DNA of 61,363 bases. Origin: Escherichia coli. GTDB lineage: Bacteria; Pseudomonadota; Gammaproteobacteria; Enterobacterales; Enterobacteriaceae. The notes under the pieces were generated by a model. It was not told the origin of the DNA. It worked only from the letters and a program-made list of their open reading frames with translations, and searched no databases. Positions 57,675 to 58,328 of this stretch are shown piece after piece; position 1 is the first letter of the stretch; each line of letters opens with the position of its first letter. Made by a program: the position numbers and the translations under genes. Where the stretch lies: the NCBI RefSeq assembly GCF_003334785.1, contig NZ_QOWV01000020.1. The stretch is one strand, 5' to 3'.

Positions 57675-57782
57675 AAGCCATCACACTTTTTTGTCTTTAG
57701 CCAGCAAGAGCCGTTTACTGTTAATCTGTCAGGAAGTGTCCTCCCTAACAGTAGCAGAGATCTGCTTTTACATATTTATGCA

Positions 57783-58196
57783 TTAACTGCCACGATAGGT
57801 TGAATACCCATATTGGCTAAGTAATAAAGGCACATGATAATGCTCGTTCACTTTATTAATATGAAATTCAACGGGGATCTCAGGGAAGAAACTTTCAAGA
57901 TTTTGTTTCTTGAAATAGTCCCCGGTTTTAAATACGACACGGTAATCGCCCGTAGTTGCAGTTTGCTCGGGCCACAGTGCCTTAATTCGTCCATCCTTAT
58001 CTGTTTTGGCGGTATTAAGTTGTAACCAGCCGTTGTCCGCTTTCTTTTCAAGAGTGACTGTCACGTCGGCAGCGGGTTTTCCTGTTTGCTGGTTCAAAAT
58101 GTGCACACTAAGAATGTTTTGTTGTGCAGCATAGACCAAAGAAGGTAATGAAAATGCAGCCGTTACTACGGAGAGTACTAAATAACGCTTTAACAT
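57783..58196 (-). CDS. hiuH: 5-hydroxyisourate hydrolase (transthyretin-like)
   Basis: 137 aa; signal peptide; C-terminal YRGS motif of the HIU hydrolase / transthyretin family. Confidence 0.88.
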
Positions 58197-58328
58197 GTTT
58201 ATATCCTTGTCATGTGAATGAGTTTTGAGGATAGCGAAAAAGCGTCCACGGTAACCTTACAGCAGCATTACAATTTTGTAATGAACCAGGCTGTTTCTAT
58301 AACATATGATTTATGGCATATTATTTTC

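Follow-up and report, generated by a model that had tools for sequence, protein, structure and literature searches.

The hprRS and hiuH-msrPQ oxidative-stress module of an Escherichia coli contig is intact and matches the known K-12 locus

Introduction

In a stretch of Escherichia coli DNA of 61,363 nucleotides (the window, taken at its full length), five genes of an oxidative-stress module lie in the same region as damaged genes and mobile elements, which raises the question of whether all five genes are really complete and, if they are, whether their completeness in such surroundings carries any meaning. The initial annotation had described hprR, hprS, hiuH, msrP, and msrQ as full-length genes with their catalytic and signal motifs, had treated them as a known system, and had set them against eroded genes on either side (hchA with IS1, yeeJ, and int). 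On comparison with E. coli K-12, Escherichia albertii, and complete E. coli genomes, the locus is almost certainly the standard chromosomal oxidative-stress module of E. coli, organized as two divergent operons and already known. We infer signaling and catalysis in this strain from the work done on K-12.

Layout and integrity of the module

The whole module occupies positions 56034 to 60358 and consists of the divergent operons hprR-hprS and hiuH-msrP-msrQ (Table 1). The span originally given for it, 57675 to 58328, does cover hiuH and its two flanking spacers, but the rest of the module lies outside it. Window positions 55127 to 61194 align with K-12 MG1655 as one block over 6068 nt, in which 145 mismatches but no gap openings occur, and the frameshifts that a closer alignment was to look for were thus not found. 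In the comparison of the coding sequences, no internal stops were present in any of the five, and their lengths are those of K-12; with the checked motifs kept as well, the description of the five genes as full-length was borne out. Their identities were confirmed by NCBIfam models and by a 100% identical record, in which PGAP lists zinT, msrQ, msrP, hiuH, hprR, hprS, partial hchA, and IS1 transposase. A stretch of 7.4 kb around the module is 100% identical in several complete E. coli chromosomes and in many unrelated isolates.

Judged by substitution rates against K-12, the module genes are under purifying selection (five genes pooled: dS, 0.078; dN, 0.0053; dN/dS, 0.068; per-gene range, 0.02 to 0.12). 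The msrP stop and the msrQ start abut directly (junction TAAATG), and the hprR stop and the hprS start share 1 nt (TAATG), so that translational coupling is likely for both the hprR/hprS and the msrP/msrQ pairs.

Table 1. Features of the module and its right-hand border (window coordinates)
Feature	Positions	Strand	Description
msrQ	56034-56669	-	211 aa; membrane heme-binding electron-donor subunit; 1 aa change vs K-12
msrP	56670-57674	-	334 aa; Tat-exported molybdoenzyme for periplasmic protein methionine sulfoxide reduction; 6 aa changes vs K-12
hiuH-msrP intercistronic spacer	57675-57782	-	108 nt; strong RNA structure predicted
Hairpin in hiuH-msrP spacer	57726-57751	-	11-bp stem, 4-nt loop: CUGUUAGGGAG-GACA-CUUCCUGACAG
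hiuH	57783-58196	-	137 aa; periplasmic transthyretin-like hydrolase (5-hydroxyisourate, urate hydroperoxide); 2 aa changes vs K-12
hiuH-hprR divergent control region	58197-58328	.	132 nt; 1/132 nt differs from K-12; conserved in E. albertii
HprR (YedW) box CATTACAAAATTGTAATG	58266-58283	-	Exact; 87 to 70 nt before the hiuH ATG
hprR	58329-59000	+	223 aa; OmpR-family response regulator; 1 aa change vs K-12
hprS	59000-60358	+	452 aa; periplasm-sensing histidine kinase; 6 aa changes vs K-12
Terminator-like hairpin and T-run	60392-60429	-	GCAGCCACG-N13-CGTGGCTGC, then GTTTTTT; between convergent hchA and hprS
hchA remnant	60466-61194	-	Lacks the first 123 nt; outside the module; partial by PGAP in the identical record
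IS1 end	61195-61363	-	Opens with terminal repeat GGTAATGACTCCAACTTACTGATAG (GGTAATGACTCC...) and runs off the window; IS1 family transposase annotated in the identical record

Control region and operator

The HprR box is the only site of its kind in the window, where 0.08 would be expected by chance, and its sequence and its distance from hiuH match those published for K-12 (El Hajj et al. preprint, doi 10.1101/2021.09.09.459708). The two spacers inside the module are far better conserved than the bordering spacers or the synonymous sites: besides the single difference in the hiuH-hprR spacer, K-12 and the window differ at 2/108 positions between hiuH and msrP, at 18/256 between zinT and msrQ, and at 6/107 between hprS and hchA. 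If dS is taken to approximate neutral divergence, the hiuH-hprR and hiuH-msrP spacers should show ~10 and ~8 differences, respectively (Poisson P, ~4e-4 and 0.01).

A longer hprR frame of 260 amino acids, starting at position 58218, was rejected; it would cross the operator, and the HprR model, matched over positions 1 to 223 of 223, fits the start at 58329.

A consensus scan of the hiuH-hprR spacer did not identify a strong sigma-70 promoter, and the promoter was not located. The lack of a strong sigma-70 consensus is usual for activator-dependent promoters. Promoter and terminator consensus scanning gave counts not above those of shuffled sequence and nothing convincing in the control region; the terminator-like hairpin between hprS and hchA went unflagged because the loop limit of the automatic scan was 8 nt. 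An Rfam search of positions 52000 to 61363 at a permissive threshold gave no hit within the module; what it picked up were two tRNAs and one subthreshold REP-like match. The last of these is a match to naRNA4 just downstream of msrQ (55970 to 56035; 35.8 bits, below the gathering score of 59.5), which we read as a REP-type element.

The operator pattern CATTACAANNTTGTAATG was also scanned over species-representative genomes (298 Gb), for which this AT-rich palindrome is too short, and it mostly matched unrelated loci; among the matches listed, the module was found only in E. albertii. At least 12 genomes from diverse proteobacteria also have the palindrome 47 to 133 nt ahead of an HprR/CusR/CopR-family regulator gene (43 to 57% identity), which points to a family-wide operator and not to one specific for HprR. 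In a Halomonas sp., genes for a CopR/HprR-like regulator and a HiuH homologue diverge around the same palindrome (positions 608 to 625 of a 1137-nt stretch). The HiuH homologue is 54% identical, has the YRGS end and a hydrophobic N terminus resembling a signal peptide, and is not followed by msrP. This arrangement indicates that linkage of the regulator, the operator, and hiuH exists outside Escherichia.

Two-component system HprR-HprS

HprR scored 483.3 bits on the NF008567 equivalog (cut-off, 353), which covers residues 1 to 223 of 223, and it keeps both the phospho-acceptor Asp51 in LIILDIMLPG and the lysine in DYLVKPF. Its only change from K-12 is H137Q, and E. albertii likewise has glutamine at this position. 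The top NCBIfam match of HprS was the full-length heavy-metal sensor kinase subfamily model TIGR01386 (316.9 bits; cut-off, 292.55). No HprS-specific model was among the best 25 of 64 NCBIfam matches, so membership rests on the 446 of 452 residues that are the same as in K-12 HprS. HAMP (residues 178 to 230), HisKA (236 to 300), and HATPase_c (345 to 451) domains were identified by Pfam, and His245 (in HELRTP), Met72, Met73, Met100, Met153, and Cys165 are kept as in K-12. By pattern search, the N- and G-box motifs NAIRY (359 to 363), DIASP (385 to 389), and GQGLG (414 to 418) are also those of K-12.

Three HprS substitutions, S311F, S380G, and V413E, fall in the catalytic half of the protein, at sites where K-12 and E. 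albertii have the same residue, and are thus found in the window allele only. V413E directly precedes the GQGLG motif, at a site where the alignment with CusS is gapped. These changes could mean that the reading frames are intact but that signaling has been altered or lost in this lineage, in which case the module would be heading for decay like its neighbors. We hold this to be very improbable. The dN/dS ratio of hprS (0.078) is not above those of neighboring genes, every defining kinase residue and every sensing methionine is kept, and the Pfam domains score normally. The V413E allele is common to many isolates, with the identical 7.4-kb sequence recurring in many unrelated ones; HprS positions 99, 107, and 438 vary between species as well, and the operator and both internal spacers are conserved. 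A working two-component system, as part of the standard module, is the reading that we retain.

At several other positions it is the K-12 sequence that stands apart. The window and E. albertii share MsrP Ala34, Pro63, and His284, HiuH Tyr22, HprR Gln137, and HprS Asp99, which suggests that K-12 probably carries the derived allele at each of these sites.

Enzymes MsrP, MsrQ, and HiuH

MsrP matched the NF003767 equivalog over residues 2 to 334 (507.9 bits; cut-off, 207). Its export signal, with the twin-arginine motif TRRQVLK at residues 21 to 27 and the AHA cleavage motif at residues 42 to 44, is identical to that of K-12, as is the context (RMRCVEAW) of its sole cysteine, Cys146, the known molybdenum ligand. 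Residues 45 to 334 match PDB entry 1XDQ, the solved structure of E. coli YedY (E = 6e-201), and the match begins at the predicted mature N terminus. Methionine sulfoxide reductase activity is predicted for this protein. MsrQ scored 239.6 bits on the NCBIfam equivalog NF003831 (cut-off, 130; residues 1 to 206); R195L is its sole change from K-12, and 8/8 of the K-12 histidines are kept, including those at positions 91, 151, and 164, with heme-binding residues among them according to the literature.

HiuH scored 296.9 bits on the NF011610 equivalog (cut-off, 217), which covers residues 1 to 137 of 137. It ends in STYRGS, that is, with the YRGS tail, in which Tyr134 is Tyr111 in mature-chain numbering, and Met1 is its only methionine, leaving the mature chain methionine-free. 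The catalytic tyrosine and the methionine-free character were taken as features to check from the preprint of Vincent et al. (PMC13252058). Both changes from K-12, A11V and N22Y, lie within the signal peptide, and residues 24 to 137, from the predicted mature N terminus onward, match the solved E. coli structure, PDB entry 2G2N.

Distribution and other copies

The 654-nt hiuH core is present at a coverage of at least 80% in 5408 of 5426 complete E. coli genomes, and the 7.4-kb stretch is present in 5401 of the 5426. The hprS-hprR-hiuH-msrP-msrQ architecture has been described as conserved across E. coli (Vincent et al., PMC13252058), and the entire module is intact in E. albertii.

The hiuH region also matched seven plasmid records, of which one, the 157-kb E. 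coli plasmid pZ1323HEC0300-2 (NZ_CP148367.1), supplies all details given here on a plasmid copy. It carries a complete second hprS-hprR/hiuH-msrP-msrQ module (positions 4456 to 8757 of the stretch examined), whose proteins are 84 to 97% identical to the chromosomal ones and whose operator, CATTACAAAATTGTAATT, has one mismatch.

Neighboring genes and the contrast with the module

The claim that eroded genes lie on either side of the module holds in part. On the right, the hchA remnant and IS1 abut the module, and the damage to int and yeeJ is real as well, but the nearest left neighbors, zinT, serU, mtfA, and asnT, are intact.

Homology to K-12 stops at window position 61194, which is hchA nucleotide 124, and the remaining ORF of 231 amino acids matches positions 54 to 286 of the 287-position HchA model. 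The same IS1::hchA junction was found in 444 of 5426 complete E. coli genomes, O26 strains included, and is an old lineage marker. Beyond the end of the window, in a near-identical genome, a 5'-truncated yedJ follows IS1, and the K-12 stretch with yedS, rseX, and drpB is missing.

The int gene of the island (52224 to 53150, ~3 kb from the module) is split between two frames, one with an N-terminal piece of 41 residues and the other with the catalytic C-terminal piece, and PGAP marks it as frameshifted. The yeeJ remnants (about 19742 to 22527, ~34 kb from the module) are ORFs of 609 and 242 amino acids with large internal deletions, whereas the K-12 gene has 7020 nt.

One loss was overlooked in the initial annotation. 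In K-12, zinT and serU flank yodB, which encodes a cytochrome b561 homologue; in the window this gene is absent, and 222 bp of unrelated sequence (54905 to 55126) takes the place of 995 bp of K-12. The arrangement without yodB occurs in 2305 of 5426 complete E. coli genomes, and the presence or absence of the gene is a common polymorphism.

The upstream part of the window contains nac, cbl, yeeO, amn, shiA, the yeeJ remnants, and a yersiniabactin island inserted at a tRNA-Asn gene. From position 9505 on, 13 differences in 40.5 kb separate the window from strain FDAARGOS_1248. Positions 1 to 9504 are unmatched in that strain, where another island (pilV, type III restriction-modification, and integrase) adjoins the tRNA-Asn gene. 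The counterpart of yeeL (18529 to 19581) is an intact family-9 glycosyltransferase gene in a near-identical genome and a pseudogene in K-12.

Since the damaged genes lie at mobile-element boundaries or are known to be variable and the module is near-universal, the contrast has no special meaning; it is that of core genes with an IS1 insertion on one side and a tRNA-Asn island junction on the other and is no property of the module. That the module is unusually protected, for instance by co-selection with the yersiniabactin island in host-associated strains, would accord with the several pseudogenes (int, yeeJ, and hchA) around it and with the argument of Vincent et al. (PMC13252058, 2026 preprint) that it aids fitness in the inflamed gut, but this, too, is very improbable, given that the hiuH core is near-universal in E. 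coli, that the module is intact in E. albertii and also in K-12, where no island occupies the region, that zinT and mtfA are intact immediately to the left, that each eroded gene either sits at a mobile-element boundary (hchA at IS1 and int at the island edge) or, like the repeat-rich adhesin gene yeeJ, is known to vary, and that the yodB difference is so common. The pattern of an intact module among ruins should therefore not be taken as a signal.

The hiuH-msrP spacer and its RNA hairpin

The spacer between hiuH and msrP has a predicted minimum free energy of -33.7 kcal/mol (z = -3.97; 0 of 200 shuffles fold as well), and its two differences from K-12 in 108 nt compare with a synonymous divergence of 0.078. 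The hairpin within it was compared in six E. coli chromosomes, E. albertii, and one plasmid-borne copy, which together gave 7 distinct sequences. Over these, 77 of 77 stem cells are paired. In the plasmid copy, two G-C pairs have become A-U through compensatory changes and one U.G pair has become C-G, the window has a one-sided G-C to G.U change, and the loop is variable (GACA, GUGA, GUGG, AACU, or GGCU). The observed level of covariation was reached by 19 of 500 shuffles, a statistic that, with few independent sequences, is only suggestive.

Wobble pairs in the hairpin hold only when the mRNA-sense strand is read, and this favors an RNA structure over a protein-binding DNA palindrome. The hairpin is present in a single copy per genome and is thus not a REP-type repeat, and it is not a classical terminator, since no U-tract follows it. 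We put forward tentatively, as a possibility that is less likely than not, that it is a cis-acting RNA element conserved in the operon transcript, which could act as a processing site or as a 3'-end stabilizer setting the HiuH:MsrPQ ratio. Targeted text searches found no mention of the hairpin in El Hajj et al. (doi 10.1101/2021.09.09.459708) or Vincent et al. (PMC13252058), and a broader literature search for a hiuH-msrP hairpin or terminator, with terms that were too general, returned nothing relevant. It is the only lead from this locus that deserves a small experiment.

A small first hairpin in the same spacer, AGCAG-AUCU-CUGCU, was rejected as a conserved feature, since neither the 118UI/AH21B060 lineage nor E. 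albertii nor the plasmid copy keeps it unbroken. In O157:H7 and some other strains, an A-run at ~57683 to 57689, ~15 nt upstream of the msrP start, is one base shorter.

Proposed mechanism and significance

In K-12, HprS (YedV) is activated by HOCl and N-chlorotaurine, Met72 and Met153 are its key periplasmic residues, and Cys165 is required for signal transmission; hiuH, msrP, and msrQ are cotranscribed, as shown by reverse transcription-PCR, and their induction by HprSR was followed with reporter fusions (doi 10.1101/2021.09.09.459708). From the conserved architecture, HprSR-dependent induction and tricistronic transcription are predicted for this strain also. HprS would sense reactive chlorine species through oxidation of the periplasmic residues Met72 and Met153 and, according to a 2026 preprint, may likewise sense urate hydroperoxide (PMC13252058). 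It would then autophosphorylate on His245 and pass the phosphate to HprR Asp51, and HprR would bind the palindrome CATTACAAAATTGTAATG upstream of hiuH and switch on hiuH-msrPQ.

HiuH, which degrades urate hydroperoxide and for which Tyr111 of the mature chain is essential (PMC13252058), would leave the cytoplasm by its Sec-type signal peptide and destroy the urate-derived oxidant. MsrP, with its molybdenum cofactor, would be exported via Tat and reduce methionine sulfoxide in periplasmic proteins, with electrons supplied by membrane-bound MsrQ. It has been proposed that MsrP reduces oxidized HprS (doi 10.1101/2021.09.09.459708), and such re-reduction would close a negative feedback loop in this strain too.

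The strain keeps a complete periplasmic oxidant-sensing and repair module, a result of little import beyond annotation. Recent work ties the module to surviving hypochlorite-type stress and, in the inflamed gut, urate hydroperoxide, and in a mouse colitis model it improves fitness (PMC13252058). The yersiniabactin island in the same strain fits a host-associated lifestyle.

Comparison with known systems

The closest known system is that of E. coli K-12, hprRS (yedWV) and hiuH-msrPQ (yedXYZ), b1968 to b1972, which has the same gene order, orientation, gene lengths, and spacers (108 and 132 nt). The operator is the same in sequence and position, as are all of the functional residues checked; the overall nucleotide identity is 97.6%, with no indels and with 16 amino acid substitutions in total. 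The flanks differ, however: the window lacks yodB and has the IS1-truncated hchA.

CusRS, the copper/silver paralogue in E. coli, belongs to the same subfamilies as HprSR (TIGR01386 and TIGR01387). HprR scored 254.6 bits on the CusR equivalog (cut-off, 420) and HprS scored 183.7 bits on the CusS model (cut-off, 423), both below the cut-offs, and the pair is thus not CusRS; HprS is only 28% identical to K-12 CusS. The targets differ as well, hiuH-msrPQ for HprSR and an efflux pump for CusRS. The two systems also meet: an HprR (YedW) binding site lies between cusRS and cusCFBA, and CusS phosphorylates YedW (doi 10.1101/2021.09.09.459708).

Salmonella has the same MsrPQ periplasmic repair system as the window, and there msrPQ is induced by a reactive chlorine species via the Cpx envelope stress response (PMC10083560). 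In contrast to this Cpx control, the window contains a dedicated HprSR pair, its operator, and hiuH.
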